Shown here one piece after another: positions 1 through 42,824 of a DNA stretch of 64,000 bases. The stretch spans positions 16,569-80,568 of the forward strand of contig JANORP010000086.1 in NCBI GenBank assembly GCA_031415375.1, in the 5' to 3' direction. The notes beneath the pieces were generated by a model. That model was not told the DNA's origin, did no database searches, and saw only the letters and a list, made by a program, of their open reading frames with translations. Origin of the DNA: Bacteroidota bacterium (lineage in GTDB: Bacteria; Bacteroidota; Bacteroidia; J057; JADKCL01). Numbering within the stretch: position 1 is the stretch's first letter; each line of letters begins with the position of its first letter. The translations under genes were made by a program, and so were the position numbers.

Positions 1-118
1 GCACGACAAGGAAAATGCGCCCGATCAAGTCGAGATTTTTGAGCAAGCAGACGATTTCCTCATTCACTACACCAATTTTGGCACCGATATCTTTAGCCGC
101 CCCAGCATCGGCCAGAGC

Positions 119-1135
119 TTGGGCTACTTCGATTATGCATTCCCAAAATTGACGCTCGCGCAATTGGAGACGCGATATGGCAAGACCGAAATCGGTCGCA
201 AGCCGCAACCCTCATCCATCTTGCCCGCACCCCCTGTCTTCCTGAACCGCGACCACCAATCGCAGTTCGAGACAGAGGGATATGTACAAATCGAATTGCT
301 GAAACCCGAAGATATTGCGGCGCTGCGAGGGATTTATGCAGCATACTTCCCTGATTCGCCGCAAGCCTTTCACTCCAGCAGCTACCTGCACGATTTTGCG
401 CTCAAAAAGGAAATGAGCGATGCCATCCAAGCGGTGATGCAACCGCGTCTAGACGCCGTTTTTCACCGCTTCAGCTGCTTTGGATCGGCCTTTCTGACCA
501 AAAATACGGGCAAGAGTAGCACCATGCCCATGCACCAAGACTGGACCATCGTCGATGAGCAGCAGTTTGTGGCTGTGAATATCTGGACGCCATTGCAAGA
601 CGCCGATGCCCACAATGGCAGCCTGCAAGTCTTGCGCGGCAGCCATCGCTACTTTCCTGTATTGCGCTGCCCGACAATCCCCTTTTTCTTTGAGGAATAC
701 AAAAACGAAATCGCGCAAAGCCTAACGCAACTAGAGGTGCGTGCCGGGCAAGCGGTGGTGCTCAACCAAGCGCTCATTCACGCGAGCCCACCCAATATGA
801 GTGCGCAGGTGCGCCTCGCGATCACGACGGGCATCAAGACAGCAGGCGCCCCGATGCGTTTCCACTACGCCTCTGCACCAGAAGAATTGGAAGTCTTCGC
901 CATGGACGAAGATTTTTTGCTCGCCTTCGATGACTTTTACAAAGACATCTACGAGCGGCCCAAAATCGGAGCCTCACGAGGGACCATCCCGTTTGTGCAG
1001 CAAAACCCCGGGCGAGACGCGATCCTGAAACATATCCATGCCAGCGGTGCGGTACCTACCTCAGCCCAAACGGGCCGAGCGCCTGAGCCCGTCGCGGTAA
1101 AAGCGGGATTTTGGAAGCGATTGTTTGGTCGCTAA
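119..1135 (+). CDS. PhyH-family Fe(II)/2-oxoglutarate dioxygenase (start uncertain; frame is open to the window edge)
   Basis: HxD...H context typical of phytanoyl-CoA dioxygenase family: MHQDWTIVDE, NIWTPLQDADAHNGSLQVLRGSH, ALIHASPPN. The same frame has no stop back to base 2, so the true start may lie upstream of the window. C-terminal tail is GFWKRLFGR. Confidence 0.8.
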   Translation: MGYFDYAFPKLTLAQLETRYGKTEIGRKPQPSSILPAPPVFLNRDHQSQFETEGYVQIELLKPEDIAALRGIYAAYFPDSPQAFHSSSYLHDFALKKEMSDAIQAVMQPRLDAVFHRFSCFGSAFLTKNTGKSSTMPMHQDWTIVDEQQFVAVNIWTPLQDADAHNGSLQVLRGSHRYFPVLRCPTIPFFFEEYKNEIAQSLTQLEVRAGQAVVLNQALIHASPPNMSAQVRLAITTGIKTAGAPMRFHYASAPEELEVFAMDEDFLLAFDDFYKDIYERPKIGASRGTIPFVQQNPGRDAILKHIHASGAVPTSAQTGRAPEPVAVKAGFWKRLFGR

Positions 1136-1140
1136 CTTTG
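1133..1140 (+). promoter_or_regulatory. candidate Bacteroidota -7 promoter box (TAnnTTTG)
   Basis: TAACTTTG lies 49 nt upstream of the ATG at 1189 and matches the TAnnTTTG consensus of Bacteroidetes sigma-A promoters. It overlaps the stop codon of the upstream gene. No -33 element was checked. Confidence 0.25.
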
Positions 1141-1188
1141 ATGTTTGATGCAAGATAGCTATCTTATGGCAAACAACATAATTGCGCT

Positions 1189-1857
1189 ATGAAGAAACAC
1201 ATTCTCGCCTTTGCATTTGCTTGCCTACTTTGCCTTCCTGCATTTTCCCAAACCTGCGCCTCGCCCTTTGCTGCGGGAACTGTGCAATTTACGGAGATCT
1301 GCACACCGACAGGAGCAGACAATTATTCGATCATTGTAACGGCGACATCAGACTCCGCGTTGCAAGTCCAAGGGCTCTGGAGAGAACAACAGCCCCTCAC
1401 CGCAGATGTGGATTGCAATACACAGACATTCACGATTCCACGGCAATTTTTGTTGGTTGGCTATGAAATCCAAGGTCGGGGAGACATCTCAGGCAACAAT
1501 GTCCAAGTATTTTATGGCGTGCATGAAACGACCAACGGTAACCTGGTCGATTCCTGTGCTGGAAATTACCAAGCTGTGATCGTAGGCACACGCGCGCCTG
1601 TACAATCTCAGCTGATCGTGTACCCCAATCCAGCAAGCTCACAGGTCCACATCCGCTGGACGGGACTCCTTGCCGGTACCTCGATCTGCAATTACCGTAT
1701 CGTCGATCTGCAAGGTCGTGTGATCATTGAGGGCAGCTTGGATGCAAAGATGGAAGCCAAGGTGGAACTCAAAGCGTTTTCAAAAGGCATATACCGCGTC
1801 GTGGTGATAGCTAGCCATGAAGGAACACTTACAAGCCATGTGCTTGTTGTCCAATAA
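1189..1857 (+). CDS. secreted protein with T9SS C-terminal sorting domain (paralog A)
   Basis: N-terminal signal peptide MKKHILAFAFACLLCLPAFSQ. C-terminal Por/T9SS-type tail: LIVYPNPASSQVHIRW...YRIVDLQGRVI...GIYRVVVIA...LVVQ. Alignable by eye over its full length with the 2016..2681 product (shared QTC(A/S)(S/A)PF, DCNTQTFTI). Confidence 0.75.
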   Translation: MKKHILAFAFACLLCLPAFSQTCASPFAAGTVQFTEICTPTGADNYSIIVTATSDSALQVQGLWREQQPLTADVDCNTQTFTIPRQFLLVGYEIQGRGDISGNNVQVFYGVHETTNGNLVDSCAGNYQAVIVGTRAPVQSQLIVYPNPASSQVHIRWTGLLAGTSICNYRIVDLQGRVIIEGSLDAKMEAKVELKAFSKGIYRVVVIASHEGTLTSHVLVVQ

Positions 1858-2015
1858 ATTGTTTGAGATGCGGCCACTACGACGGCATTCGATGAAGGTT
1901 GAAAAAACATGCAGAAAATGAATGCTTCGAGTGCGAGGAGGAGCTTTTTGGCATCGTAGTTGCTTACTTGTACCCAAATCGTTAAGTCATTTACACCCAC
2001 TAAATTCGTAAGTAC

Positions 2016-2681
2016 ATGAAAAAAATCCTACTCGTCCTCGTAACACTTGTAGCCTACTGCGCAAGCTATTCCCAAACCTGCAGCGCACCGTTTGTGGAAA
2101 ATCCCGCTTCCTTGACAGAATCTTGTAACCTATCAGGTGCCGATGCTTATGCAATAAGCGTGGTTGCAGCCTCTGATAGCACGCTCGCGATTACAGGATT
2201 CTACCGTGAGCCCGGCACCGTTATTGCAGACATTGATTGCAATACACAAACGTTTACGATTGCTGCGCAGTCGATTTCCAACAATTTCTACATGACTGGC
2301 ATGGGTGGTATGAATGGCCAATTGGTGGGTTTCACCTATGACGTTTACAGTGCCCTTGACTCAACCCTACTAGAGACCTGCACGAGTGGCTATGTGGTGA
2401 CTGCTGTGGGCTTGCCTTCAGAAAAGCATGATACACGCCTCTACCTCTATCCCAACCCTGCAAGGGAAAGTGCAACACTGCGCATCGATGGTTTGGGCAC
2501 AACGGAAGATCAGTGGACCTATCAAGTTCTAGACCTGCAGGGCCGTGCAATTGCCAAGGGCGTGGTGAACGATCAATGGACAGCCATCATCGACCTTAGT
2601 GGCCTCGCACAAGGCATGTACCATGTGGTCGTGCAAAGCAGCGATGCCCAACTGGCTAGCAAGGCCTTGATGGTGCAATAA
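2016..2681 (+). CDS. secreted protein with T9SS C-terminal sorting domain (paralog B)
   Basis: Signal peptide MKKILLVLVTLVAYCASYSQ. T9SS-type tail LYLYPNPARESATLRI...YQVLDLQGRAI...GMYHVVVQS...LMVQ. Paralog of 1189..1857. Confidence 0.75.
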   Translation: MKKILLVLVTLVAYCASYSQTCSAPFVENPASLTESCNLSGADAYAISVVAASDSTLAITGFYREPGTVIADIDCNTQTFTIAAQSISNNFYMTGMGGMNGQLVGFTYDVYSALDSTLLETCTSGYVVTAVGLPSEKHDTRLYLYPNPARESATLRIDGLGTTEDQWTYQVLDLQGRAIAKGVVNDQWTAIIDLSGLAQGMYHVVVQSSDAQLASKALMVQ

Positions 2682-2720
2682 ACCCATCTTATTCCACGAT
2701 CGGCGTCGATTCACCTTGCT

Positions 2721-3176
2721 TTAGGCCAGGCCAAATCGGCGCTTGTCGTTGGCTGCGATCGTGGTCGTTGATTTGAATGCATTCCTGACTGCTTCAAAAT
2801 CTGTTTCAGATAATTTCCCGACCACGATCGTAGGGCTGTCTGAAACTTTTTCAAGCAGCGCGACGCAATCCTTCTCAAAAAATTGCGTGCAGTCCACAAA
2901 TGAATCGTGGCTGAGAAAGTCATAGTCGGCAGCCTTGATGGGGATATGCCAACTCCGAATCATCGGGTCACGAAAAATGTGGGGATTGATTTGGCTATTG
3001 ATCAGGAGGAATCCAAACACGATTTTGTCCTTGGTTGCTCCCAACACAACGAAAAACTTGATCTTGGGGGGATGGGTATCCGTGACATGGGTACGAATCA
3101 CGACGCCTCGCTCAAGCAACGCGCGCTCGGAGAATTCTTTTCGCAACGCATCAGGGAAAAAATCACTCAGAGCCAT
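2721..3176 (-). CDS. hypothetical protein; candidate toxin partner of the upstream Panacea-domain antitoxin
   Basis: 151-aa ORF overlapping the 3' end of the DUF4065 gene by 10 nt (operonic, antitoxin-first order). I recognise no family. The toxin role is inferred from context only. Confidence 0.5.
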   Translation of the reverse strand: MALSDFFPDALRKEFSERALLERGVVIRTHVTDTHPPKIKFFVVLGATKDKIVFGFLLINSQINPHIFRDPMIRSWHIPIKAADYDFLSHDSFVDCTQFFEKDCVALLEKVSDSPTIVVGKLSETDFEAVRNAFKSTTTIAANDKRRFGLA

Positions 3177-3694
3177 TTCAGTGCCGCCTCGGCCTCGTCT
3201 ATTTCTCTGATATAGTCCATCATCTCTGGGGAGGCATGGGCTTCTTGTGCAATGTCGAGTAGCGCAATCTCATTGTTGATGGTGGCATGGGTCCAGGCCT
3301 CACCATGCGATTTTATGGACAATTGCTCAAATGTCAATCGCTTGTTATCTGCAATGGATCGATTGATGCAATCGATTTCCGAGGCCGATAGGTAGTCTTT
3401 GTCGGGGATACGCTTGGGAATGATCACATAAGCCCTAGCCTCCAACAACAAGCGGTCTTCATCTGGGATGCGCGCGGCATCTTCCCGGAAGACTTTGAGC
3501 AGGTCATAGGTACGTGATGGTACCGGGCCATCTTTCATGGCGATATATTGGTCGCCCAATATCGTGCGGCCATAGGTTGCCAAGTGCTCGCGGTCGGCGA
3601 AGTAGAAAATCTTGAAGATTTTATGGAAATCGGCTGTCTCGAGCTGGTTGGCGACCAACAGCACTGCATTCAGTATTTTTTTCTGGTTCCACAT
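3167..3694 (-). CDS. Panacea (DUF4065, SocA/GepA-like) domain protein, putative antitoxin
   Basis: N-terminal pattern FHKIFKIFYFADREHLATYGRTILGDQYIAMKDGPVPSRTYDLLK matches the DUF4065 signature (hKl.KllYfad..hl...G..i.g..y.A...GPV.s.iY) recalled from memory. Confidence 0.65.
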   Translation of the reverse strand: MWNQKKILNAVLLVANQLETADFHKIFKIFYFADREHLATYGRTILGDQYIAMKDGPVPSRTYDLLKVFREDAARIPDEDRLLLEARAYVIIPKRIPDKDYLSASEIDCINRSIADNKRLTFEQLSIKSHGEAWTHATINNEIALLDIAQEAHASPEMMDYIREIDEAEAALKWL

Positions 3695-3915
3695 CCTTCG
3701 CCTTCCTTTCCGACAAAATTAATAGTTTTTTGCGGGAACTTCAAGTCCTATCTCAATTTTTCTTTCTACAGGCCCGTCCTAGGAAGATGTATCGCCGATC
3801 GATGGTACGAGCCACCGCCATCTTACGACAAGAATCATGTTCCCTGATCCCCCAAGAATCGTTATCTTTGAGCAAGTCCATCGATCGTATGGGCGCAATT
3901 ATTTTGCGATAGAAT

Positions 3916-4917
3916 ATGGTACAGGCAGTATTCAGGGACATTGAAACACAGCGTCAATTTGACGTAGATGGCTACGTCCATCTTCAGCACTTTCTAAGTA
4001 CCGAGGAGGTCGAAGCCCTCAAAGCAGCCTATTTCGAGCTGCTCCCTGAGAGTGGTGGTGCAATGTCGGGCGACGAGACCGACTTCAAAAACGAGAATGC
4101 GATCACCTACGATTTCACGTTCATTGACCGCAATTGGGAGTATAAACAAAAGGTGTTTGACCGCATTTTTGCGGCTTTTGAGGCTCATTTCGAGCCGATC
4201 CTTGCCGACTACACACCCATCATTGCCAATTTTATTCGCAAAGAAGCCGATGGTGGCGAGGTGCCACTGCATCAAAATTGGGCCTTTGTCGATGAGATGA
4301 AATACACCTCGGTCTCGATCTGGGTACCCCTTGTGGACAGCAATCGCGACAATGGCACCCTAGAGATCACTCCCGGAAGCCACAAGCGCTTTGGGCGATT
4401 CCGAGGACCCATGGTGCCTTGGGAACTCGACCATATCAAGGAAGACATCATCCGCGATTTCATGGTGCCCATGAATGCGACCGCTGGCGACGCCGTGATC
4501 CTCGACGACAGCGTCATCCACTACAGCAATATCAACACGACACAAGGCCTGCGCCTCACGATCCAACTGATCTTGGTGCCCAAAAATACAACGAGCATCC
4601 ACTACCACCTCGACCGTGGCGTAAGCACAGACGAGGTGCGCGTACTGGAAGTTGACCGTGATTTCTATATGAAATTTCACCCTTGGAAACGACCTGAGGG
4701 CAAGGAAGTCGGCAAGCGCAACGTGAAACTGCGCTATATCGACAGGGCAGAATTTGAAGCACGCTTGCATGGGCCTGAATTTTCCACAATGCCTGACATT
4801 GTGGAGGAGGCAGCGACCATGCCCGTGCAGGCAGAATCCGTCGCGCCATCGCAGCAGGCTGTAGCCGCGGCAGCGCCACTAGGTTTACTGGGCCGTCTCA
4901 AGCGCATTTTTTCATGA
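3916..4917 (+). CDS. PhyH-family Fe(II)/2-oxoglutarate dioxygenase
   Basis: LHQNWAFVDE, SIWVPLVDSNRDNGTLEITPGSH, SVIHYSNIN. C-terminal Ala/Pro-rich linker then LGLLGRLKRIFS. Its stop overlaps the next ATG (ATGA at 4914-4917). Confidence 0.85.
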   Translation: MVQAVFRDIETQRQFDVDGYVHLQHFLSTEEVEALKAAYFELLPESGGAMSGDETDFKNENAITYDFTFIDRNWEYKQKVFDRIFAAFEAHFEPILADYTPIIANFIRKEADGGEVPLHQNWAFVDEMKYTSVSIWVPLVDSNRDNGTLEITPGSHKRFGRFRGPMVPWELDHIKEDIIRDFMVPMNATAGDAVILDDSVIHYSNINTTQGLRLTIQLILVPKNTTSIHYHLDRGVSTDEVRVLEVDRDFYMKFHPWKRPEGKEVGKRNVKLRYIDRAEFEARLHGPEFSTMPDIVEEAATMPVQAESVAPSQQAVAAAAPLGLLGRLKRIFS

Positions 4918-6734
4918 TGTATGACCTCATCCGCGATCCCGATCTGCGTGCGCAATTGGCACGCGATGGATATGTGACGCTTCCATTTTTGGAAGAGGCC
5001 GATCTTGTGATCCTGCGCCAGCTATTTGAGGAAGTGCGCGCCAAAGTCGCCCTCCAAGGCTTTGCCACAACGACCACGTCGCCCGATTTGGCGCTCAAGA
5101 AGGGCATGTTTGAGCGAATCCAGCCATTGTATCAACCCAAGGTCGATGCGCTGTTTGAAGACTACAAAACGCTCGGCGCTAGCTTCTTGCAAAAAGATGC
5201 TGGCCCATCTGGCAGCTTGCCGTTGCACCAAGATTGGACAGTGACAGATGAGGATCATTTTCGCACGTTCACGATTTGGGTGCCGCTCGAGGATTGCGGT
5301 TTGGAAAATGGCGCCATCCAAATGTTGCCGGGGAGCCACCACTATATGAATCTATTGCGCGGCCCCAATCTGCCGATCGCAATCAAATCGGTCGCCGCGC
5401 AATTGGAAACAGGCTTGGTCACCCTTGCACTCAAGGCTGGCGAAGCCCTGATCTTCGATCATAGTGTCCTGCACAAGAGCACGCTCAACACGAGCGGGCG
5501 ACCACGCATCGCACTCACCTACGGGCTCACACAGCAGGCTGCGCCGCTGCGCTTTTGGTACCATCATCCAGCAGATGCAGCCGACCGATTCGAGCAAATC
5601 GCCGTGCCCGACGATTTCTTTTTGCAGTACCATCAAATCGGCAAGCGCCCCACAATCGGTTCCAGCCTAGGCTTTTACCACCAAGACCTCTCCCCTATCA
5701 CCGCTGCGGAATGCACAGCCATGAAGGCTGAACAAGCCATGCGTCGCCCGCTCCTCCGCGACCTGAGCGCCAAAAATTGCTTGCTCGATCACCCACAATA
5801 TGCGATCACCAAAAAGTCTGGCTGGAATCGTCAATTGGCCGAGCAGGGCTATGTGCTAATCCCATTGCTCGATGGCGCGCAAATTGCGCATTTGAAGGAT
5901 TTTTTTGAAGCCCATCAAAAAGAGGTCGTTGATCGTTTCTATGCCAGCGTCCACAATCCCGACACCGATTTCCGCCTGCGGATGGATGCCGAGATTCAAA
6001 CAATATTGCGGCCTTCCTTGGAGCTGATCTTGGAGGATGCTGAGGCCCTCGGAGGCTCCTTCATTGCCAAACCACGTGGCACGGCAGGCATCTTGCCGCC
6101 GCATGCCGACTGGAATATTGTGGATGAGCGCGTTTATCGCAGCTACAATTTATGGATCCCACTCGTGGATACGAGCGTAGAAAATGGCGCTGTGCATGTG
6201 ATCCCTGGCAGCCACAGTTGGCTGGATGATTTCCGTGGGCCCGGCATCCCCAATCCTTTTGAGTCGCTCAAAGTGGATGTCTGGAATGCCATGCAGGCTT
6301 TGGAAATGAAAGCGGGCACGGCCTTGCTGTATGACCATCGCTTGTTGCATGCATCGCCTGTGAACCAGACAGATGCCCTGCGCATTGCTTGTGTCATGGG
6401 CGTGAAGCCCAAAGCCGCCCCCATGCGCTACTACCATGGCGATGGGCAGCTTGTGCGGGAATATGCGGCGCATCCGACCTTTTTCATGACACAAAATCCA
6501 GAACAAGGGCCAGCTGACTTGCCTTTGCTTGGCGTCGTCACCGATCAGTTTCCCAGCATTTCCGCTTCGGAATTGCGTGCTTACCTGGGCCAGGAGGCTG
6601 AGGCTGCCGAGGTCACCGAGGTCACCGAGGTCACCGAGGCTGCCGCAATGCCTGTGCAGCGCGGTTTTTGGGAGACTTATTCCTTGGGAAATATTGTGCG
6701 GGAGATCAAGTACCGGCTCAGCGGCAAGAGCTGA
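4914..6734 (+). CDS. tandem double PhyH-domain dioxygenase
   Basis: Two complete PhyH modules in one 606-aa ORF: LHQDWTVTDE...IWVPLEDCGLENGAIQMLPGSH...VLHKST and PHADWNIVDE...LWIPLVDTSVENGAVHVIPGSH...LLHASP. C-terminal linker contains EVT x3 encoded by a 9-bp repeat (6609-6635). Confidence 0.85.
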   Translation: MMYDLIRDPDLRAQLARDGYVTLPFLEEADLVILRQLFEEVRAKVALQGFATTTTSPDLALKKGMFERIQPLYQPKVDALFEDYKTLGASFLQKDAGPSGSLPLHQDWTVTDEDHFRTFTIWVPLEDCGLENGAIQMLPGSHHYMNLLRGPNLPIAIKSVAAQLETGLVTLALKAGEALIFDHSVLHKSTLNTSGRPRIALTYGLTQQAAPLRFWYHHPADAADRFEQIAVPDDFFLQYHQIGKRPTIGSSLGFYHQDLSPITAAECTAMKAEQAMRRPLLRDLSAKNCLLDHPQYAITKKSGWNRQLAEQGYVLIPLLDGAQIAHLKDFFEAHQKEVVDRFYASVHNPDTDFRLRMDAEIQTILRPSLELILEDAEALGGSFIAKPRGTAGILPPHADWNIVDERVYRSYNLWIPLVDTSVENGAVHVIPGSHSWLDDFRGPGIPNPFESLKVDVWNAMQALEMKAGTALLYDHRLLHASPVNQTDALRIACVMGVKPKAAPMRYYHGDGQLVREYAAHPTFFMTQNPEQGPADLPLLGVVTDQFPSISASELRAYLGQEAEAAEVTEVTEVTEAAAMPVQRGFWETYSLGNIVREIKYRLSGKS

Positions 6735-6796
6735 GTTTGAGGGATCATGGATTGGAGGGTCTTTTCAAAATGACATACCTCCCATTGAAATTATTG

Positions 6797-7030
6797 GAGT
6801 GTGTAACATTTCAGGGGAGCCCAAGGCCTCTGGCCGTTGGGCTATCGACCCCCGCCTTCTGCGGGACAGGCGTTTGCCTCCGGCAATTGCGTTTTGTAGT
6901 TGTTGATATTGAGCCGTTTATGCCAGAGGCAAATGGTCAATTGCCCTGCGGCCCCCGCCTTGCTGCGGGACAGGCAGAGGCCTAGGGCTCAGAATCGACT
7001 CATTCGCCTCCCCCAGATTGTTACACACTC
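6797..7030. repeat. intergenic element bounded by 12-bp inverted repeats, containing two copies of a CCCGCCTT(G)CTGCGGGACAGGC hairpin motif
   Basis: GAGTGTGTAACA (6797-6808) and its exact reverse complement TGTTACACACTC (7019-7030). Hairpin motifs at 6851-6865 and 6954-6969. The same CCCGCCTTGCTGCGGGA hairpin recurs near 51905. Confidence 0.4.
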
Positions 7031-7167
7031 AAATTCTTGGGCCAATATTCGCTTCCCCCCGAAAATTCAACGACGAGAGTTCTAAGAGATGCGCATGCAT
7101 GAGGGGGCATTTATTTTGGGATGATCCCAGGCTTGATTGCGGATGAAAGCTTGGGTAAATTGCCAAT

Positions 7168-8421
7168 ATGAACAAACCTTGCCTACTACTATTTGCTTTG
7201 TGTTGGTGTGGCTTCCTTGCGAAAGCACAAAACCGTATCGATCGACAACGCGAGAACAGGCTTGCCGTGCAACATGCCCTGCTATTGCATGCAGGGGGTG
7301 CGGCTCTGGGTGCGGGTCCGGGCTACGAGTTGCTGCTGTCGTCCCGCAGAGGACTCACGATCGCGCCAGGCTTGTCATTGCCTCTGGTGCATAGCACATG
7401 GCACAAGTATTATTCGCCCATTTCGCTCAGCCCGAGTGTCAATGTCATGTGGGGGCGGCGGCATTGGAAAATGGAGCTGTCCACGGAGTACAATTACTTC
7501 ATCGAGTGGGCCCGCAATCAAGGCGGGACTCTTTCAGCCTACACGATTCATAGTTTGGCGATGATGCCAGGGATACGTCGGCAGACTGCTGGAGGTGGAT
7601 TGATCCTGCGCGCGAATCTGGGCGCAAAATTGGTGGGAATCGGTGCGCAGCCAGAATTGCTGCCTGCCGCGACTGTGAGCATTGGGTATGCATTTCGCAG
7701 CAAGTCTGCAAGCTTGTCCGGCATCCCCCCAAAACCCAAATGGCAATGGGGAAATAGGATTGCAAATAGCAATGCAGACAGTAGTGGACAAAAGACATTT
7801 CAGATACAATTCGCCCCCATGGCGGCTATCGGGCTCAATCGGCAATTGCAACATCAACGCAAATTCCCATCACCCTACGAATTCCCGGAATACACTTTCC
7901 AATTTCAAACGCGCTGGGCTACCCAATTGGGGGGCATTGCAGACTTGGGAAATGCTGGTGCGATCGCTGGTCTGCGGCTTGGATTGGCCGTCGGACTGCA
8001 GCGAATGAGGCTGGATTGGCATTCGAAGGTGCGATTTCAAAACCAAAACGGAGCCTACTACGATGATCACCGCGATACACATATCAATGATCTCCAGCTC
8101 ACCCTGGGCTTGAGCGCCTGCCTGCGGTTATGCATACCCACTCCGCAACCATGGATTTTTCAAATCGGGATGCTGGGGGGCAAAAATCGTACTCTTGCTC
8201 GTGATTCTTGGCAGACATCGCCCAACAGCACGGTTCAGAAGGAAAATCAGGGAATATTGCAATTCGGTTTTGGACCCACGATTTCGATTTCCAAGCAATG
8301 TGCTCTCGGAGCATGGCGAATCGAGCCATTTTGGGAGACGCACTGCAGCCTGCGACGCATCTACAGGGAACCCAACCTCTACCAGTGTCGCACATCGGCA
8401 GGTGTCCTATTTTGGCTCTGA
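7168..8421 (+). CDS. hypothetical secreted / outer-membrane protein
   Basis: Signal peptide MNKPCLLLFALCWCGFLAKAQ. Gly/aromatic-rich alternating segments. C-terminus ...SAGVLFWL is aromatic-rich, as in beta-barrel terminal strands. No family recognised. Confidence 0.5.
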   Translation: MNKPCLLLFALCWCGFLAKAQNRIDRQRENRLAVQHALLLHAGGAALGAGPGYELLLSSRRGLTIAPGLSLPLVHSTWHKYYSPISLSPSVNVMWGRRHWKMELSTEYNYFIEWARNQGGTLSAYTIHSLAMMPGIRRQTAGGGLILRANLGAKLVGIGAQPELLPAATVSIGYAFRSKSASLSGIPPKPKWQWGNRIANSNADSSGQKTFQIQFAPMAAIGLNRQLQHQRKFPSPYEFPEYTFQFQTRWATQLGGIADLGNAGAIAGLRLGLAVGLQRMRLDWHSKVRFQNQNGAYYDDHRDTHINDLQLTLGLSACLRLCIPTPQPWIFQIGMLGGKNRTLARDSWQTSPNSTVQKENQGILQFGFGPTISISKQCALGAWRIEPFWETHCSLRRIYREPNLYQCRTSAGVLFWL

Positions 8422-10500: not shown

Positions 10501-12492
10501 ATGAAAAGCACGAAGCGTCTGATTTCCGCACCAGTTCTATTGATTTTGCTGGTTTTGCTGGGCTCCAATGCCTGGGCACAGCAAGTCAATGACCTCCTAT
10601 TGCTGCAATCACTCGAAAACCCGCTCGAAGGCACCATGGTCGATGTGCAAGCGAGCATTCACGATGGCTGGAGGGAAAAAGGCGTCCTTAAAATCAGGAA
10701 GCAACAAGATGGAGACGCCCCAGGCTCATTCCGCTCGCTCTATGAATTTGACAAAGCCGGCAACCTGCTCCGCAAGGAAACTGGTGCCAAGACCCAAAGC
10801 ATCGCCTATGATGCCGATGGCCACTTGCGCAAAGTGAGCAACTTTGAAAACAACAAGCTCGCCAGCGCACAATACTTCTATTATGACCGCAAGGGCCTCC
10901 TCAAGAAGTCGGTGCTCAAGTTTGAGACCGATGCCAACGAGATCGAAGGTACCTACGATGTCCAAAATCGCCTCATCCGTGTGCGTCAGTATGCCAAAGG
11001 TATCGCCACAAAAACCATCAACATCCAATACACCTACAATGAAGTCGGCGAATTGGTTGCAATGTCTGCACCTGGCCTAAATGCGACCTACCTCTACTCC
11101 AATGGGAAACTGAACGAGCTGAAGGAAGAAAAAGTGGGTATGAGCACCCAAACCAATTTCATCTGGAAAGGCAGTGTGCTTCAGGAATGGAAAAAATATG
11201 AGGAAAAAGACGGTGACCTCATCCTCGCAGAGACCTTTGCCGTGGACTACAACGCCGCTGGCCTTCCAGCCCGCAACACTGTCAAAGGCCGTGGGCCCAA
11301 CGTGAAGCCTGTCGTGACCAATGTTTTTTATGATGGATTTGAAGCTGGCTCGATGGCGATGCGTGGCGATGACTGGGACGGCGGCGGCTACGGCTACGGC
11401 ACCCCTGTGGTGATCACCTGGTCCAATCCAGAAAGTGATACCCGCGTCACCGACAGCATGTATTCCCTCAAGTTGCAACTCAAGCCTGGCGTAGGCCAAG
11501 AGATGCCTGAGATCAAAACGATGACGCTGCGCCTCAATCACCAGCTCACCAACAAGGAGATCGGCAATGTCGTGCTGCGCAAAAAAGGCAATACCAACGA
11601 GTATTACATTGAGGAGCAACTGCCCTTGATGGAAGGCAGCAATACCATCTTCCTCGACGTGGAGACCCAACTGGGCCACTTTACTTCAGGTGAGCGCTAC
11701 ATCACCTACAAAAACCCCAACCGTGAGATCACCGTCAAAAACCTGCATGTATTGGCCATCGGCATCGATGACTATGTCGATGACAACCTTGACATGACCA
11801 GCGCCAACAAAGATGTTCAGTCGATCGTGAGCTCGCTGGAAGGCCAAAAAGGCCGCGTCTTTGGCGAGGTCAGAACCAAGACACTGAGCAACAGCGACGC
11901 CACCAAAGCCAATATCGAAGACGCCATCCGTCAGATCAAAGGCAAGGCTGCCAAAGACGACCTCGTGCTCATCTACTTTGCTGGCCATGGTGCTGAAAGC
12001 AATGGCAACTTCTACTTGAAGCCCAACGATGTGAAGGCCGATCCAGCTGAGATGGAAGCCTCAAGTGTTGACAACCGTTGGATTCTTGAGGAGATCAGCC
12101 GCTACAGCGCGCCGACCCTCTACTTCCTCGACGCCAGCTACCCCACCAAGGGCGATGCAGCAGCCACCTCGATTGGCAACGCCAACATGGATGCTGTCAC
12201 CACCGACTTTGGCAAGGTCATCGACAGCGACGACGACATCAGGATCTTCGTGAGCAGCACGAGTTCCAAGCAAAAAAGCAACCTCGGTGGCGCCGACAAA
12301 GGCAGTGTCTTTACCAGTGCGATGCTTGAGGGCCTCGACGGCAAAGCCGACAAAAACGCCAATGGTTTGGTGACCGTCGAAGAACTCGGCGACTATGTTT
12401 CTGACCGTGTGCTCGGCCAGACCAACTGGAAACAAAAGCCAATGGTCGTGAAGCGTGGCATCGGCATGGTGCCACTGTCCAAAGTAAAATGA
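10501..12492 (+). CDS. secreted YD/RHS-like-repeat protein with C-terminal caspase-fold (C14) domain lacking the catalytic Cys
   Basis: Signal peptide. Repeats of the YD type (YDADGHLRKV, YYDRKGLLKK, YTYNEVGELV). Caspase-like block HVLAIGIDDY...LVLIYFAGHGAE...TLYFLDASYP, where the usual D-x-C is D-A-S (Ser codon 12136-12138). Confidence 0.75.
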   Translation: MKSTKRLISAPVLLILLVLLGSNAWAQQVNDLLLLQSLENPLEGTMVDVQASIHDGWREKGVLKIRKQQDGDAPGSFRSLYEFDKAGNLLRKETGAKTQSIAYDADGHLRKVSNFENNKLASAQYFYYDRKGLLKKSVLKFETDANEIEGTYDVQNRLIRVRQYAKGIATKTINIQYTYNEVGELVAMSAPGLNATYLYSNGKLNELKEEKVGMSTQTNFIWKGSVLQEWKKYEEKDGDLILAETFAVDYNAAGLPARNTVKGRGPNVKPVVTNVFYDGFEAGSMAMRGDDWDGGGYGYGTPVVITWSNPESDTRVTDSMYSLKLQLKPGVGQEMPEIKTMTLRLNHQLTNKEIGNVVLRKKGNTNEYYIEEQLPLMEGSNTIFLDVETQLGHFTSGERYITYKNPNREITVKNLHVLAIGIDDYVDDNLDMTSANKDVQSIVSSLEGQKGRVFGEVRTKTLSNSDATKANIEDAIRQIKGKAAKDDLVLIYFAGHGAESNGNFYLKPNDVKADPAEMEASSVDNRWILEEISRYSAPTLYFLDASYPTKGDAAATSIGNANMDAVTTDFGKVIDSDDDIRIFVSSTSSKQKSNLGGADKGSVFTSAMLEGLDGKADKNANGLVTVEELGDYVSDRVLGQTNWKQKPMVVKRGIGMVPLSKVK

Positions 12493-12632
12493 CAATGCGC
12501 ACGCCTAGCGTGCACTTGTAACATCGGCAGAGGGAGTGTGGGTTGTGAGAAAATGCTCGCACTCAGACTCCCTCTCCCATTTCAGCGGAGCGTGATTGCC
12601 CCGTAGATTGTGTGGAATTCGTTTTCCTGAAT

Positions 12633-12640
12633 TATATTTG
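12633..12640 (+). promoter_or_regulatory. candidate Bacteroidota -7 promoter box (TAnnTTTG)
   Basis: TATATTTG lies 39 nt upstream of the ATG at 12679, which begins the signal peptide MMQKTALICLL. This position argues against the ORF-track start at 12655. Confidence 0.35.
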
Positions 12641-12678
12641 TTAATGTCCTCGGTATGGACTTGAAATCTGAAAAGGCT

Positions 12679-14913
12679 ATGATGCAAAAAACTGCCCTGA
12701 TCTGCTTGCTGACCTGCCTCTGTGGGCTAGGGCTGCTGCGTGCGCAAGAAAGGGTCATTTTCAAAGACGATTTCAAAGACAACCATCACGCCTGGACCAT
12801 GCAAGACGATGAAAAGGCGCATAGCGAGGTCGTCAATGGGCATTATCAGCTAGAGGGCAGGCAGCCCGATGCCGTGTCGATCTTCTTGCTCGATGAGTTG
12901 CCACTCAATGCCAGTCAGGATTTCACGATCCAAACCAAACTGATCCAGAAGTTTGGAGCCAAGGAAAATGGCTTTGGTTTTGTCTGGGGCGCTGCCGATG
13001 AAAGCAACTACTACGCATTCAACATCAATGCAGCTGGCCAATACCGCGTCGTGCGCTGCAGTCAAAGCAATGTCGAGGAACTCAAACCCTTCACGCAGAC
13101 CACAGGACTCGTGAAAACCGAGGGAGCAAACAAGTTGAGCCTGCGCACCGTGAGCGGCATGATGTCCTTTTACATCAACGATCAATTTATCTGGAGCCTC
13201 CCCAACCGCACTTTTCTCGGCAATCGTGCAGGCTATGTGCTCTATGGCAAAATGGAGGTAGAAGTCAATAGCCTCGAAGTGCTAGAGCTACAAGCCATGC
13301 CAGAAATCTTTGCCGAGCAATTTGACGACAACAGCCGTGGATGGGTCGTGACCGCTGCCGACAGCGCCTACATGATGATGGGCAAAGGACGCGTGCGCAT
13401 GAAAAATCAAAAAGGAGCTGCCCAGACCTATAAGCTCCGCGAAGTCCTCATCAACCCTGAGCGCGACTTTGAGATCGAAGCCCACATGAAACAAGTCACG
13501 GGCTCCCAAGAATTTGGATATGGCATCGGCTGGTCCATGAAAGACGATAAGAATGGCTATGCCTTCTTGATCCGTAGCCTGGGTTCATTCTCTGTGCGTC
13601 AGATCACCAATGGGCAGGTGAAAACCCTGGTCGATTGGACGCCAAGCAACCAGATGCTGCACCTCCGCGGCACCCCCAACAAGTTGGTGATCCGCAAGAC
13701 TGGCTTGCGCTACAACTTCTACCTCAACGATATTTGGATGGCCGAAGTGCCATTTACCAATATGACCGGGCAACAGCTGGGATTTGCCCTCGATGGTGAA
13801 AACCTTGTAGAGATGGACTATCTCGCCGTGCGCGAAGGTCAGAAAAGTTATGTTCCGCAGCCACCTGTCGTGACCCTGATCACACCGCAAGGCGACGACA
13901 TCACGGTCGATGCCAAAAGCATACAGTTCAAAGCTGGCATCAAGAGCGACTCCAAGCTCAACGGCGTGAAACTCATGGTGAATGACGAGCAGGTGCAAAT
14001 CCAGGCCAAGCGCGACCCCGAAGGCAAATTTGATCTCATGATCGACCAAGAGCTCGCCCTCAAACCCGGCTTCAACGACATTCGCCTCATGGCCAAAAAC
14101 GACGATGGCCTCATCCAGCGTTTTGGACTTCGCATCGCCGTCAAGACACCCGACCAACCCGTGAAGCGATCTGGCAACGACTATGCCCTCTTCATCGCCA
14201 CCGACAACTATGGTCAGTGGAGCCACCTCGTGAACCCTGTCAATGATTGCCGCACGATCGCCCAAGAACTGGAGACCAACTATGGCTTCAACACCGAGCT
14301 CATGATCGACGGCACCCGCAACGACATCCTCAAGAAACTGAAGGAATACGCCCGCAAGATATATGCAGACGGTGATCAGTTGATGATCTTCATCGCTGGG
14401 CATGGCAAGTTTGATGAGCTGTTTGGCGAGGGATATGTCGTCTGTACCGACTCCGAAAAGGACGATGAAGGCAACAACACCTACATCCCGCACTCCAACC
14501 TGCGCACGATCGTGAACGCCATTCCCTGCAAGCATACCTTTTTGATGATGGATGTATGCTTTGGCGGTACCATCGACCCCTTTATTGCCTCTGGTGGCGG
14601 CCACCGTGGCGAAGGCGATCCTGGTGGCGGCAAAGAACTCACCCAAAGCGACTTCATCGCCCGCAAATTGGCGTTCAAGACCCGTCGCTACCTCACCTCG
14701 GGCGGCAAAGAGTACGTTCCCGATGGCGTGCCTGGCAATCACTCCCCCTACGCCCGCAAATTTCTCGACGCCCTGCGCAACTATGGAGGCCACGACCGCA
14801 TCATGACCCTGGCCGAGCTTGTACTCTATTTCGAACGCCTCATTCCAGAGCCACGTTTTGGTGAGTTTGGGGCCAATGAACCAGGGAGCGACTTCTTGTT
14901 TATTGCGCGCTAA
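12679..14913 (+). CDS. secreted multi-domain protein with C-terminal caspase-fold (C14) peptidase domain (His/Cys dyad intact)
   Basis: Signal peptide MMQKTALICLLTCLCGLGLLRAQ. Two related beta-sandwich-like N-terminal repeats (FKDDFKDNHHAW..., FAEQFDDNSRGW...). Caspase block YALFIATDNY...LMIFIAGHGKF...HTFLMMDVCFGGT (Cys codon 14557-14559). Confidence 0.8.
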   Translation: MMQKTALICLLTCLCGLGLLRAQERVIFKDDFKDNHHAWTMQDDEKAHSEVVNGHYQLEGRQPDAVSIFLLDELPLNASQDFTIQTKLIQKFGAKENGFGFVWGAADESNYYAFNINAAGQYRVVRCSQSNVEELKPFTQTTGLVKTEGANKLSLRTVSGMMSFYINDQFIWSLPNRTFLGNRAGYVLYGKMEVEVNSLEVLELQAMPEIFAEQFDDNSRGWVVTAADSAYMMMGKGRVRMKNQKGAAQTYKLREVLINPERDFEIEAHMKQVTGSQEFGYGIGWSMKDDKNGYAFLIRSLGSFSVRQITNGQVKTLVDWTPSNQMLHLRGTPNKLVIRKTGLRYNFYLNDIWMAEVPFTNMTGQQLGFALDGENLVEMDYLAVREGQKSYVPQPPVVTLITPQGDDITVDAKSIQFKAGIKSDSKLNGVKLMVNDEQVQIQAKRDPEGKFDLMIDQELALKPGFNDIRLMAKNDDGLIQRFGLRIAVKTPDQPVKRSGNDYALFIATDNYGQWSHLVNPVNDCRTIAQELETNYGFNTELMIDGTRNDILKKLKEYARKIYADGDQLMIFIAGHGKFDELFGEGYVVCTDSEKDDEGNNTYIPHSNLRTIVNAIPCKHTFLMMDVCFGGTIDPFIASGGGHRGEGDPGGGKELTQSDFIARKLAFKTRRYLTSGGKEYVPDGVPGNHSPYARKFLDALRNYGGHDRIMTLAELVLYFERLIPEPRFGEFGANEPGSDFLFIAR

Positions 14914-14932
14914 GAACAAAACCTTTTCGACC

Positions 14933-15973
14933 GTGACAACCTCCCTCCTTCGCTGCCCCTACTGCCTGCAAGGCGTGCAGAGCTTCCTACGCGATGCCAA
15001 GACGAATGTACCGCATTGCCCCAATTGCCGCACCGACATCCCCAAAACCTTTTTGGACAGCGCACTTATGCTGCGCACGATGGTCGGCGTCGTCGGCTTC
15101 TCTGGGCATGGCAAGACCGTCTATCTCACATCGCTCTTCTCGACCCTCAAGCGCTTTTCCAACTATTGGAACGGCTACTATTTCAGGAGCCTCGACGACT
15201 TCACCCATCGTGTGATCTATGAGCAAGTCCCCCTTTTTGAAAAGGGCGACCTGCCAGAATCCACCCCCGCCAACTTCCCCAATCCAGCCTTGGTGCATTA
15301 CCATCAGCTGCCCGTGTTTCAAGATGCTTTCGTAGGCTACTACGACACGGCGGGCGAGGTTTTCAATGATGCTACGCAGATCGCAAGGGCTGGCTTTTTT
15401 GTCGCCCACTCAGACACCGTGCTCTTCATCGTGAGCATTCCCGACTGCGACTCTGGTGAACTTGATGATCACATGAGTCGCCTCCTTGATACTTATATCA
15501 GGGCTGCCGACGACAAACTCAACACCAACATTCGCAATACCCAGCGCTTGGTGGTGATTTTTACAAAATCCGACCTCCCGACGAGCCGGCTCAACGATGA
15601 ATTGAAAGACTGGCTCTCAAAAGGTGTGGCCGACTACTACGCCATGAACCTGAGCGACAAATTGCTCGATCTAGGCATGTTTTCGATCCGCATCGAAGAT
15701 TGGTTGCGCGAGGACCTCGGCTGCACCCGCTTTGCCAACATGGCCCGCGACCACTTCATCGAAGTGCGTTATACCATCGTGAGCGCCATGGGCATCACCG
15801 ACGACGATGATGAAAAACTCAGCCCCCTGCGTGTACTCGACCCCTTCCTCTGGGTCCTTGATTTTGCACGACGCGACAAGAAGATCATCGTCAAACAAAA
15901 CCTTTTCGAGCGCTTTATGGCATGGGTGAGAACCCGTAAAACTACCAAAATGCTCCCCGTGGGGACGAGATAA
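14933..15973 (+). CDS. zinc-ribbon-fused P-loop small GTPase
   Basis: Start moved to GTG 14933, 19 nt after the upstream stop (the ORF-track start 14819 overlaps the caspase gene). CPYC...CPNC ribbon. G1 GFSGHGKT (15095-15118), G3 DTAGE (15344-15358), G4 TKSD (15563-15574). Confidence 0.7.
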   Translation: MTTSLLRCPYCLQGVQSFLRDAKTNVPHCPNCRTDIPKTFLDSALMLRTMVGVVGFSGHGKTVYLTSLFSTLKRFSNYWNGYYFRSLDDFTHRVIYEQVPLFEKGDLPESTPANFPNPALVHYHQLPVFQDAFVGYYDTAGEVFNDATQIARAGFFVAHSDTVLFIVSIPDCDSGELDDHMSRLLDTYIRAADDKLNTNIRNTQRLVVIFTKSDLPTSRLNDELKDWLSKGVADYYAMNLSDKLLDLGMFSIRIEDWLREDLGCTRFANMARDHFIEVRYTIVSAMGITDDDDEKLSPLRVLDPFLWVLDFARRDKKIIVKQNLFERFMAWVRTRKTTKMLPVGTR

Positions 15974-15991
15974 GTCGCAAAAACAAAGCCC

Positions 15992-17815
15992 ATGAAAGTC
16001 CATCGCTACATCTACACACGGCTCACCAAGGACCTCTCCCCCACAGGTAAAAATGGTTTCCAATCCGCATTTGTGCCCGGCGACCTCATCGCACGCAAAG
16101 ATGTCTTGGAAATCGAGTCCCATATCCACTTTCCTGAAGGGTTGCAGATCGAAGGACAGTCAGTCGTGTTCTACAAGCAGGTCAAGACCGAGTTGTACAT
16201 GATTTTGCTCCTTCTACGGCCACTGCCCGATGTCAAGGATGACTTTGGGCGCAGTGGCGCTTTCTTGTGCGAAGGTTTTATTTTGGCAGAAAAGGATTGG
16301 CGACCCATCTGGCGAATCTCGGACTTGATCGAACTGGTCACGCCCTATCGTTTTGCATCGCTCGGGCAGCTACTTGCATCAACCGACGTCGATCGCACGA
16401 CGGGCTTCATTAGCGATCTCACGGTCACAGTTCCGCCAGGATATTGGACCGATGCACTGACATCGTCAGATGACGAGCCCCAAGAAGAATTGCTATTGGC
16501 GATGTACCACGTCGCCAAACTGCAAGACAAAGACTTGGCGATCGTCGTCGAAGGACTGCCAGCAGCCGTGACCCATAGGTTAGAAACCTGCGCCATGTTC
16601 ATGCCCGAGGCCCTGCGTGCACACACTGGATGGGACGATGCATTTGATGGCGGCAAGATTTTCTTTTCCCCACTCCGCATCTTCGGTTATAGCGAGCTAT
16701 TGCCCACCACCGGGAGACCCGTGGTGTTTCCCGCAGACGGGAGCGCACCCAAATGGCTAGAGGACGGTATGCAGCGTTTTGGAAAACCAAGCGATCCCTT
16801 CTCCAACTGGCTATTGGAAGTCTGCGTAAATACTGTACCCCGTGCACGGCTAGATGCAATGTATGCTTTGTCTCAAGCCATGATTTCTGGCAGACCTACC
16901 GCCATCGATATGGAAAGTGAGTCCATCTTCGAAATCGTCAACAAAGACGCGATTCGCAAGCTATTCATCCAAGGATTGCTGGTACACATGGAGCTGCCTT
17001 GGGCCGAGAAACTTGCTGACCTCACCATGGCCAACCATCAGCTCACCACATGGATGCAGGGATACCTCATCGCTGACCTCACCCATCTACTGGAAGTGAG
17101 CATCGTCTCTCAAAATCTGAGACCCGAGGGCATGAAAGACGCCCCTCCAACCAACCTTGTGCGCCAAGGCAGTGCAGCATTGCAGACGCTTGCAACGATG
17201 TGGACGCTTGAAATCATCACCCCAGAAATCTTGGATGACATCCCCGAGGATCAAATACCCGAGGTGCTCACCTTGATGCTCGGTAGAGGTTCCCATCAAG
17301 ACACCCCATTCGCGACAATCGTAAATCATTTTAGGGACTACTTGCACAAGCTTGCCAGAGATCCCAAAATCGCCGAGAACCTGCGTTGCTATGTCGCTGC
17401 AAAAGTCCCCGAGGAATATGTAGATTTCAAAGAAGGTATGGCAGCTGTAGCAGTACAATTGGGTGATTATGCCAGTCTGCGCGGCGAACCCACAGATTGG
17501 TTGCGCCTGCTAGACCGATGGCTCATTTCTACGGGAGGCAATTCCGAAGTCTGGAAAGCAGCAAAAACACTCGCTAAGACGACCGATCTAGGACGCTACG
17601 TCAATCTCAAAGCATTCGCCCTAGGTGAAGCTGCAATTCCTCATGAATTGGAGGGGAATGGCGATGGACGCAAAGGATTCCTAAGATGTCTCATAGAAGT
17701 CCATGGGTTCAATGAGCAAAAATTAATCGATATGGATTTTTTTTCAACAGAAGTCAGAGATTCCGGAAGCTCCACGGGCTTCATTGGCAAACTCAAGCGG
17801 CTCTTTGGACGGTGA
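15992..17815 (+). CDS. 607-aa GTPase-partner protein (GAP1-like N-terminus suspected) with MinD-like C-terminal amphipathic tail
   Basis: Lies 18 nt downstream of the GTPase gene. N-terminus IYTRLTKDLSPTGKNGFQSAFVPG resembles the YTS...G..GFQ..A.S.G signature of GTPase-associated protein N-domains (from memory, unverified). The remainder is mostly helical. C-terminus is GFIGKLKRLFGR. Confidence 0.6.
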   Translation: MKVHRYIYTRLTKDLSPTGKNGFQSAFVPGDLIARKDVLEIESHIHFPEGLQIEGQSVVFYKQVKTELYMILLLLRPLPDVKDDFGRSGAFLCEGFILAEKDWRPIWRISDLIELVTPYRFASLGQLLASTDVDRTTGFISDLTVTVPPGYWTDALTSSDDEPQEELLLAMYHVAKLQDKDLAIVVEGLPAAVTHRLETCAMFMPEALRAHTGWDDAFDGGKIFFSPLRIFGYSELLPTTGRPVVFPADGSAPKWLEDGMQRFGKPSDPFSNWLLEVCVNTVPRARLDAMYALSQAMISGRPTAIDMESESIFEIVNKDAIRKLFIQGLLVHMELPWAEKLADLTMANHQLTTWMQGYLIADLTHLLEVSIVSQNLRPEGMKDAPPTNLVRQGSAALQTLATMWTLEIITPEILDDIPEDQIPEVLTLMLGRGSHQDTPFATIVNHFRDYLHKLARDPKIAENLRCYVAAKVPEEYVDFKEGMAAVAVQLGDYASLRGEPTDWLRLLDRWLISTGGNSEVWKAAKTLAKTTDLGRYVNLKAFALGEAAIPHELEGNGDGRKGFLRCLIEVHGFNEQKLIDMDFFSTEVRDSGSSTGFIGKLKRLFGR

Positions 17816-38575: not shown

Positions 38576-38677
38576 AGGTTACAATTGATTGATGGCTGAA
38601 AATTAAGCATCTAAATGCTGCTGCGCAAATCCGTGCATGCTCTCGGCAAGACGATGGCATTGCTCCAAAGGCGCAGC

Positions 38678-39901: not shown

Positions 39902-39907
39902 AGGCTA

Positions 39908-41143: not shown

Positions 41144-41337
41144 GTAAGTGAGCTTGTATTTGAACTTACAAGATAAGAAAAATTGGATTAAGTGCTGCAC
41201 GCTTTGGCGGTCAAAAGGTGCCATCAATACAACAACTACTGGAAGTCTTTGTGCGCTGAGAAATGAAGCGTCACAACGTCGATGCAGCGTCAAAGCACTA
41301 ATCGGGAGCGATGCCGTTTTTCAAAATCCCACGCAAC

Positions 41338-42549: not shown

Positions 42550-42650
42550 TGTTCCAAAAGGTGATGAATGAGCCTGATGTCAAAACTAAGTAAAAGATGC
42601 GACTTGGTAGAAGATCAAGCACCCCAAGACAAATCACAAATCCACCAATC

Positions 42651-42770: not shown

Positions 42771-42824
42771 AAAACACCTATCGTCTCGCACACCCACCGA
42801 CCAGCAATCATCACCTCACCACGC

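Follow-up and report, generated by a model that had tools for sequence, protein, structure and literature searches.

LpxO and KdoO are Fe(II)/2-oxoglutarate (2OG) dioxygenases that act on lipid-anchored glycoconjugate intermediates at the cytoplasmic membrane face and, to our knowledge, oxidative tailoring of bacterial surface glycans by Fe(II)/2OG enzymes has barely been explored beyond these two. PhyH-annotated genes, sometimes in more than one copy, are found inside the wzm/wzt lipopolysaccharide (LPS) cassettes of Xanthomonas, which direct ABC-dependent O-antigen assembly. In the same kind of pathway, the Wzm/Wzt-dependent chain terminator of E. coli O9a, WbdD, owes its position on the cytoplasmic side of the membrane to an amphipathic helix at its C-terminus (PMC3447403). 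Here we analyse a cluster of PhyH-type Fe(II)/2OG oxygenase genes at one end of a 64,000-nt stretch of Bacteroidota DNA, which we refer to as the window and within which all coordinates are counted. The encoded proteins end in short, conserved tails, and we put at about even (a probability of roughly 0.5) the chance that they are membrane-tethered cytoplasmic oxygenases acting on a lipid-linked sugar or glycan that is afterwards exported by an ABC transporter.

The locus shares features with each of these systems. As with LpxO and KdoO, its products are Fe(II)/2OG oxygenases for which we propose lipid-anchored glycoconjugates as substrates, but LpxO and KdoO belong to the Asp/Asn beta-hydroxylase and Kdo hydroxylase families and act as single enzymes, whereas the PhyH proteins form an array of six paralogues. 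Like the enzymes proposed here, WbdD is a cytoplasmic glycan-tailoring enzyme held by a C-terminal amphipathic helix, and relatives of the PhyH array also have a methyltransferase beside a Wzt-like ATPase; however, WbdD is a kinase/methyltransferase with coiled coils rather than an oxygenase, and there is no sequence relationship. The Xanthomonas genes are PhyH by annotation, and the paralogue set of the window recurs at two high-GC, Xanthomonadales-like loci, L077 and L086, where five of the six proteins are untailed. The module described below is a recognisable variant of known themes (PhyH oxygenases, membrane-targeting tails and ABC-dependent glycan assembly), and is unusual in its six fixed paralogues, its two classes of tail and a member with an H-x-N site. 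Together with linkage to a Wzm/Wzt-type exporter, these features now define a recognisable module in many uncultured Bacteroidota, and this module may account for the annotated but unexplained PhyH genes of plant-pathogen LPS cassettes.

The locus comprises four genes and six PhyH domains

An earlier note, made from the sequence of the window, had described three genes encoding four PhyH domains. All three open reading frames (ORFs) do match PhyH (PF05721), scoring 79, 88 and 146 bits where the curated cut-off is 22 (E 6.7e-22 for ORF 119-1135; other values in Table 1). The 606-aa product of the third, P3, has two matched stretches, as expected for the double PhyH protein that the note had proposed, and its halves, P3N and P3C, lie at about 4914-5801 and about 5802-6734, respectively. 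The note was also right that P3 is translationally coupled to the preceding gene, P2, the stop of which overlaps the P3 start in an ATGA at 4914-4917. The count of genes and domains, however, was too low. The reading frame assigned to 119-1135 is open as far as base 2, so this 338-aa ORF is truncated by the window edge. On the Logan contig L001, which is identical to the window, the full gene (P1; L001:128-1921) encodes a 597-aa two-domain PhyH protein and starts 658 bases upstream of the window. Its upstream half is also a PhyH domain, 67% identical to the g2 protein of the relative L002, and its C-terminal half, in which the g3-type domain starts near base 227 of the window, is 63% identical to the g3 protein of L002. 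On L001 the P1 start is overlapped by the stop of yet another tailed PhyH gene, the product of which ends in ...KRSFFSRLFSRK (also given as ...EPKRSFFSRLFSRK). Since P1 is cut by the window edge and a further tailed PhyH gene lies upstream of it, the locus consists of four genes with six PhyH domains.

The domains were compared all against all. The six fall into distinct families (P2, P3N, g1, g2, g3 and P3C) that are 27-35% identical to one another, and orthologues of each domain in other genomes are 51-67% identical. We therefore rejected a recent duplication as the source of the second operon, since each of these divergent domains has its own orthologues in distant genomes. The relatives most similar to the first operon, L002 and L004, have g1, g2 and g3 as three separate overlapping genes.

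Arrays of the six families in other genomes

Scanning GTDB, at one genome per species, with an alignment of the P2 family yielded 80 loci, almost all of them in metagenome-assembled genomes of Chitinophagales, Flavobacteriales, Saprospirales, Sphingobacteriales and Crocinitomicaceae. In 62 of the 80, five or more PhyH domains stand in a single same-strand run, and the commonest order is P2-P3N-g1-g2-g3-P3C. A fused P3N-g1 protein of 630-650 aa occurs in 44 loci; the other PhyH-PhyH fusions are g2-g3, P3N-P3C, P2-g1 and g3-g1. Viewed against this background, the window carries a rearranged copy of a conserved Bacteroidota six-domain PhyH module, which in its clade has been split and re-fused into two operons, g1 followed by g2-g3 and P2 followed by P3N-P3C. 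The variable pairwise fusions and the predicted template modelling score (pTM) of 0.82 for the model of the fused P3 suggest that the paralogues pack together. The fusions further suggest that they function next to one another, perhaps within a complex.

The PhyH proteins carry C-terminal tails of two classes

P1 ends in GFWKRLFGR and P2 in LGRLKRIFS, the latter ending at 4914, and both sequences are located where the earlier note had placed them. The membrane-targeting sequence (MTS) of E. coli MinD, which we take to be ...KKGFLKRLFGG, is matched by GFWKRLFGR at seven of nine residues. The tails of this type, which we call class A, resemble it in being short and strictly C-terminal, in combining aromatic residues or Leu with Lys/Arg, and in conserving this character. 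The AlphaFold2 (AF2) model of P2 agrees in predicting a flexible linker with a short helix behind it: residues 301-323 are disordered, with predicted local distance difference test (pLDDT) values below 50, and the terminal helix at 324-332 is modelled at low confidence. MinD, however, is a ParA-type ATPase, whereas the tails here are borne by oxygenases, and the likeness is certainly convergent rather than homologous.

A strict MinD-like motif, [FWLIM][FWLIMV]x[KR][LIVMF][FKRLW] within the last 14 residues, singled out just three of the window's 95 open frames of 150 aa or longer, namely P1, P2 and the 607-aa GTPase-partner protein discussed below. Across the 80 loci it was present in 166 of 381 PhyH proteins compared with 7 of 754 neighbouring ORFs, and a looser composition rule was satisfied by 69% of PhyH proteins compared with 0-35% of soluble neighbour enzyme families. 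When the top 120 homologues were taken for the g3 domain and for P2, nearly all of them ended in a short aromatic/basic segment behind a variable linker. Tails of g3-family orthologues include SFWKRLFGA, GFWSRLFSGK, GFIARLFGRK and similar sequences, and GFLQRLKRIFG, SFAQKLRKWIKA and NFVEKLKAVFS are further examples from the g3 and P2 homologues; unfused g1 and g2 proteins are likewise tailed. Tails are thus present in orthologues of all six paralogue families, with their character conserved and their sequence not; the lack of conservation in orthologues that the earlier note had named as part of a refuting case was not observed. Judged by this pattern of sequence conservation, the tails are real and selected. 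A membrane anchor is well supported by the same conservation, from which we infer membrane binding itself, and a substrate near the membrane is a reasonable expectation.

The note had further proposed an analysis of amphipathicity. Hydrophobic moments (Eisenberg and Wimley-White scales, 9- and 11-residue windows) had higher medians for tails than for controls (p about 1e-18 to 1e-25), but the distributions overlapped widely and the E. coli MinD tail itself lay at the 25th-66th percentile. We consequently dropped the hydrophobic moment as evidence, since it discriminates too poorly, and used the motif and composition tests instead.

A class-A tail also ends the 607-aa GTPase partner encoded at 15992-17815, next to the DO-GTPase2 gene at 14819-15973. 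The earlier note had pointed out this recurrence, and we found the tail (GFIGKLKRLFGR) to be kept in homologues of the partner down to about 25% identity. Since it is conserved on this unrelated family too, the class-A tail is probably a portable targeting module in these bacteria. Literature searches on PhyH proteins with amphipathic tails in Bacteroidetes, and on an MTS combined with a dioxygenase, found nothing relevant.

The tail of P3 is of a different kind. It lies where the earlier note had put it, but the description of it as also amphipathic was too simple, as it forms a distinct, sequence-specific motif, FWxTY[TS]PxNIxREIKxRLxG, that is present in double-domain proteins and is kept from 96% down to 29% identity. 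Residues F585, Y589, N593 and E597 of this class-B tail are invariant in our alignment A2 and spaced i, i+4, i+8, i+12. Within the 80 loci the motif was seen in PhyH proteins only, with 49 C-terminal and 3 internal occurrences. The AF2 model of P3 shows a disordered segment at 566-582 followed by helices at 585-588 and 591-603, with a pLDDT of about 81 for residues 591-600. In addition, the inter-domain junction of P3 (5700-5800, residues about 262-296) holds ...MRRPLLRDLSAKN..., which resembles g2-type tails such as RKPLLKRVLDSMFS and may be the relic of a tail lost at fusion.

Fold and active sites

The AF2 models have pLDDT values of 87.9 for P2 and 92.2 for P3 and, with the Foldseek matches, support the double-stranded beta-helix fold. 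Foldseek was run with the P2 model, and all top matches were PhyH-type oxygenases (E about 1e-12). Together with a sequence search of the PDB, in which matches reached E 1e-5 or weaker, it brought up distant PhyH tailoring enzymes only, at 15-21% identity, among them SnoK/SnoN, SptF, AviO1/EvdO2/HygX, EctD, PHYH and the TlxIJ heterodimer. SnoK/SnoN and EvdO2/AviO1/HygX, the best PDB matches by structure and sequence, oxidise sugar moieties; they differ from the array proteins in their low similarity (TM-scores 0.4-0.6) and in being soluble enzymes of actinomycete antibiotic pathways, without tails or an ABC-2 context.

In the alignments, five of the six domains (g1, g2, g3, P3N and P3C) keep the H-x-D motif, the distal His and the 2OG-binding Arg; the two sites of P3, H105/D107/H187/R198 and H397/D399/H479/R490, are invariant in alignment A2. 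In P2, the site reads H119-Q-N121 ... H202 ... R213, so that Asn (codon 4276-4278) replaces the carboxylate of the triad while the distal His202 and Arg213 are retained. This substitution is a family trait: H-[QE]-N was present in 120 of 120 P2 homologues, HQD in 119 of 120 g3 homologues, and N121 is invariant in the 35-sequence P2-family alignment A1. We know of no characterised H-x-N member among the 2OG oxygenases, and the sequence pattern suggests that the P2 family may either catalyse in a non-canonical way or serve as a non-catalytic partner. Other 2OG oxygenases with altered iron sites, the halogenases (H-x-A/G) and AspH (two-His), share with P2 the family-wide loss of the carboxylate ligand, but halogenases have Ala or Gly at that position where P2 has Asn. 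Identity as a halogenase of the SyrB2/WelO5 type was rejected, as the TIGR01762 matches were short and far below cut-off and the sites are H-x-N or H-x-D rather than H-x-A/G. Membership of the LpxO/AspH-type family was rejected as well, since the Asp_Arg_Hydrox match was partial and below cut-off.

Linkage to ABC-2 exporters and sugar-pathway genes

An ABC-2 permease gene lies inside the PhyH run in 48 of the 80 loci, in most cases directly ahead of P2, though at times P2 and P3N flank it. P3C is commonly followed by a methyltransferase (39 loci) and an ABC ATPase (29 of 80), and 38 of 51 well-flanked loci have an ABC component. The permease is nearest to Wzm/RfbD, KpsM and VexB and the ATPase to Wzt/RfbE and TagH, in each case with scores below the equivalog cut-offs; DrrA and NodI match the ATPase at lower scores. 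One ATPase has a Wzt_C match (E 1.8e-5; 25 bits against a cut-off of 30.4) that is absent from another. Recurrent neighbours include ArnC/PgfS-like GT2 and other GT2 glycosyltransferases, GT4, DegT, GNAT, KASIII (FabH-like), SDR, epimerase/dehydratase, UbiA-family and radical-SAM genes and WelO5-like oxygenases. GT2, GT4, DegT, epimerase and FdtA-like genes are each present in 5-17 of the 80 loci, none being universal, and UbiA-family, KASIII and SDR genes in 10-15. Natural fusions of two kinds (Table 1) join a P3C-type PhyH domain to an ArnC-like polyprenyl-phosphate GT2 ending in a hydrophobic segment and to the cluster's own methyltransferase, respectively. One such locus reads ABC-2 permease, double PhyH, PhyH, PhyH, PhyH::GT2 and an FdtA-like gene.

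WelO5-family (carrier-independent halogenase-like) 2OG oxygenases were also seen near PhyH arrays at L074:15768-16670 and in seven other loci, and B12-radical-SAM and SPASM radical-SAM genes recur there. These neighbours suggest further unusual tailoring chemistry.

The ABC linkage, the sugar-type neighbours, the GT2 fusion and the tails together point to a lipid-linked glycan as substrate, and from them we infer the substrate class and the chemistry. We propose that the oxygenases would be held at the membrane by a terminal helix, which is the FWxTY-P-NIxREIKxRL motif where double proteins are concerned and otherwise the basic, amphipathic tail of MinD-like type. There they would catalyse a number of distinct oxidative modifications of a sugar substrate anchored in the membrane. 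This substrate would most probably be a glycolipid or a sugar or glycan linked to polyprenyl phosphate, and the product would then be exported by a Wzm/Wzt-type ABC-2 transporter. The module so understood predicts tails that localise to the membrane, a hydroxylated or otherwise oxidised glycan product, hetero-complexes among the paralogues and a functional Asn-containing iron site.

Several observations weigh against this proposal. No ABC transporter, methyltransferase or glycosyltransferase gene was found within 10 kb in the window, in L011, L012 or L013, or beside the g1-g2-g3 operons of L002 and L004, and the other 57 kb of the window yielded none either. The 80 loci were chosen via the P2 family, and the statistics hold for P2-containing arrays. 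In L077 and L086 (GC 62-64%, labelled Lysobacterales / Rhodanobacteraceae), which have the same PhyH set and an ABC ATPase, one protein in six is tailed: the g1-g2 fusion carries a lone basic amphipathic tail, SGWRTWLRRLL, and the other five proteins end without one. Hydrophobic-moment scores part tails from controls weakly, with E. coli MinD itself unremarkable. The class-B invariants include a polar Asn and Glu on one helix face, a pattern that protein docking would explain no less well than lipid binding. Lastly, the cluster methyltransferase is weakly similar to CMAS and to cyclopropane-fatty-acyl-phospholipid synthase and some loci have UbiA-family and KASIII genes, so that a lipid moiety is possible.

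This last point touches on an unlikely alternative, that the hydroxylases are tethered to the bilayer in order to act on bulk membrane lipids or pigments, such as the acyl chains of ornithine, serine or glycine lipids, sulfonolipids or flexirubin, with one lipid or position per paralogue. The founding PhyH enzyme 2-hydroxylates branched acyl-CoA, and such substrates would also suit the conserved tails, the resemblance of the methyltransferase to the phospholipid synthase, the UbiA-family, KASIII and SDR genes and the missing glycan genes around the locus in the window's clade. However, the genes conserved alongside the array encode a Wzm/Wzt/TagH/KpsM-type exporter, and no lipid-biosynthesis gene is conserved. 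A PhyH domain is fused to an ArnC-like polyprenyl-phosphate glycosyltransferase, the DegT, FdtA-like, GNAT and glycosyltransferase neighbours are typical of sugar pathways, and no membership-level match of the LpxO/OlsC type was obtained. The ornithine and serine lipids, sulfonolipids and flexirubin-type pigments that the earlier note had named as candidates are therefore without genomic backing, the partners in the 80 genomes being the ABC-2 permease, the Wzt/TagH-like ATPase and the methyltransferase. A lipid-linked glycan is the more likely substrate.

Somewhat less probable again is that the tails are mainly protein-docking peptides, which would hold together a hetero-oligomer of the six paralogues or attach them to the ABC transporter or a glycosyltransferase, making membrane proximity indirect. 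The class-B tail, with its invariant F/Y/N/E every four residues, its restriction to the family and its fairly confident helix, would be well suited to this role, and the changing fusion partners, the pTM of the fused pair, the PhyH-like heterodimer TlxIJ among the structural matches and the single tailed protein of the Xanthomonadales-like loci are all compatible with it. The class-A tails speak for the membrane instead: their sequence varies freely while their aromatic, basic and amphipathic character is kept, which is the signature of lipid-binding MTS helices and not that of specific docking; the same type is conserved on an unrelated conflict-system protein; and GFWKRLFGR shares seven of its nine residues with the MinD MTS.

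The membrane-tethered, glycan-tailoring reading can be carried further, into a scenario that we hold to be about as improbable as docking alone. The six paralogues would form one membrane-tethered hetero-oligomeric assembly, in which the invariant H-x-N subunit would be a variant catalyst or a regulatory pseudo-enzyme and the class-B tail would dock to Wzm/Wzt, and a polyprenyl-linked glycan would be multiply oxidised during its synthesis or while being fed to the pump. If this is true, a glycan-tailoring machine of a kind not described before would be common among environmental Bacteroidota, and the PhyH genes that stand unexplained in Xanthomonas LPS cassettes would be related to it.

Very improbable, finally, are ordinary soluble oxygenases that tailor a small secreted metabolite or nucleotide sugars, with C-termini that have no targeting role and a pump acting like DrrAB or NodIJ. 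In favour of this view, the nearest solved structures belong to enzymes that tailor natural products, DrrA and NodI are among the lower-scoring matches of the ATPase, and radical-SAM and WelO5-like genes occur in some loci. Against it, the recurrent neighbour families include no polyketide synthase, non-ribosomal peptide synthetase or precursor-peptide genes, the tail is strongly enriched over soluble neighbours, the transporter is matched best by exporters of polysaccharides and teichoic acids, and a membrane-bound ArnC-like GT2 is fused to one of the paralogues.

Clade-specific insertions at the locus

Table 1. Coordinates of the PhyH genes, their tails and inserted genes. Positions are those of the window unless another identifier is given. 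T9SS, type IX secretion system; CTD, C-terminal domain.
Feature	Position	Strand	Remarks
P1 (g2+g3 fusion)	2..1135	+	C-terminal 377 codons of 597-aa double-PhyH protein
Class-A tail of P1, GFWKRLFGR	1106..1132	+	after Ala/Pro-rich linker
T9SS-secreted protein	1189..1857	+	signal peptide and type-A CTD; Por_Secre_tail E 3.2e-9
Paralogous T9SS-secreted protein	2016..2681	+	signal peptide and Por_Secre_tail
Toxin-antitoxin-like pair	2721..3694	-	between the two PhyH operons
P2, 333-aa PhyH paralogue	3916..4917	+	PhyH E 1.1e-24
Class-A tail of P2, LLGRLKRIFS	4885..4914	+	helix 324-332 in AF2 model
P3, 606-aa double PhyH	4914..6734	+	PhyH E 1.8e-42, two matched stretches
Class-B tail, RGFWETYSLGNIVREIKYRLSGKS (also given as GFWETYSLGNIVREIKYRLSGKS)	6660..6731	+	C-terminus of P3
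Class-A tail, GFIGKLKRLFGR	17777..17812	+	on 607-aa GTPase-partner protein
P3C-type PhyH fusions to GT2 / methyltransferase	P0456-P0460; L093:10001-11467		

The two PhyH operons are parted by genes of other kinds. The two T9SS-secreted proteins are paralogues, 36% identical, and do stand interleaved with the PhyH genes as the earlier note had said; a toxin-antitoxin-like pair on the minus strand, which that note did not mention, separates the two PhyH halves. Its antitoxin is a 175-aa SocA/Panacea protein (3167-3694; SocA_Panacea match E 6.7e-22), and the 151-aa partner, encoded by an overlapping ORF (2721-3176), has no family match. In the syntenic relatives L011 and L013, the whole locus consists of g1, the g2-g3 fusion, T9SS gene or genes, the toxin-antitoxin pair, P2 and the P3N-P3C fusion, and L011, L012 and L013 each have one copy of the T9SS gene at this position. 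Homologues of the N-terminal domain of the first T9SS protein were found only in L001, L011, L012 and L013, the toxin-antitoxin pair has counterparts in the window's clade alone, with 63-94% identity in L011-L013, and a downstream 417-aa protein has homologues in that clade only. Because of this restricted distribution we place all three outside the conserved module. The T9SS genes and the toxin-antitoxin pair are clade-specific insertions that are unlikely to be linked to it functionally, and a functional tie, which the earlier note had left undecided for the T9SS proteins, was rejected given their absence from the contiguous canonical arrays. Scans of positions 1-7400 for promoter and terminator consensus sequences gave counts below shuffle expectation and were uninformative.

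Other features of the window

The GTPase partner with the MinD-like tail belongs to a conflict-system-like block at 10501-17815 (+). This block also encodes two caspase (Peptidase_C14) proteins of 663 and 752 aa, the smaller with a weak RHS-repeat match, and the DO-GTPase2 protein; the partner itself is without a Pfam match, and its tail is family-wide. Directly downstream of the GTPase pair, at 18084-24941 (+), is a 2285-aa ORF in a region of strong AT skew. A 943-aa eCIS_core protein lies between two PoNi (PoNe-immunity) proteins at 30740-36090 (+), an arrangement that looks like toxin and immunity. At 37394-45310 (-) there is a same-strand run of ORFs of roughly 400 aa, four with HEAT-repeat matches below Pfam cut-offs and the others with none, which looks like a tandem paralogue array. 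Lastly, the segment 49157-51723 (+) encodes an MBOAT membrane O-acyltransferase and, after it, an AlgX-like SGNH protein; the pair resembles AlgI/AlgX-type polysaccharide O-acetylation systems and could be relevant to surface-glycan modification here.

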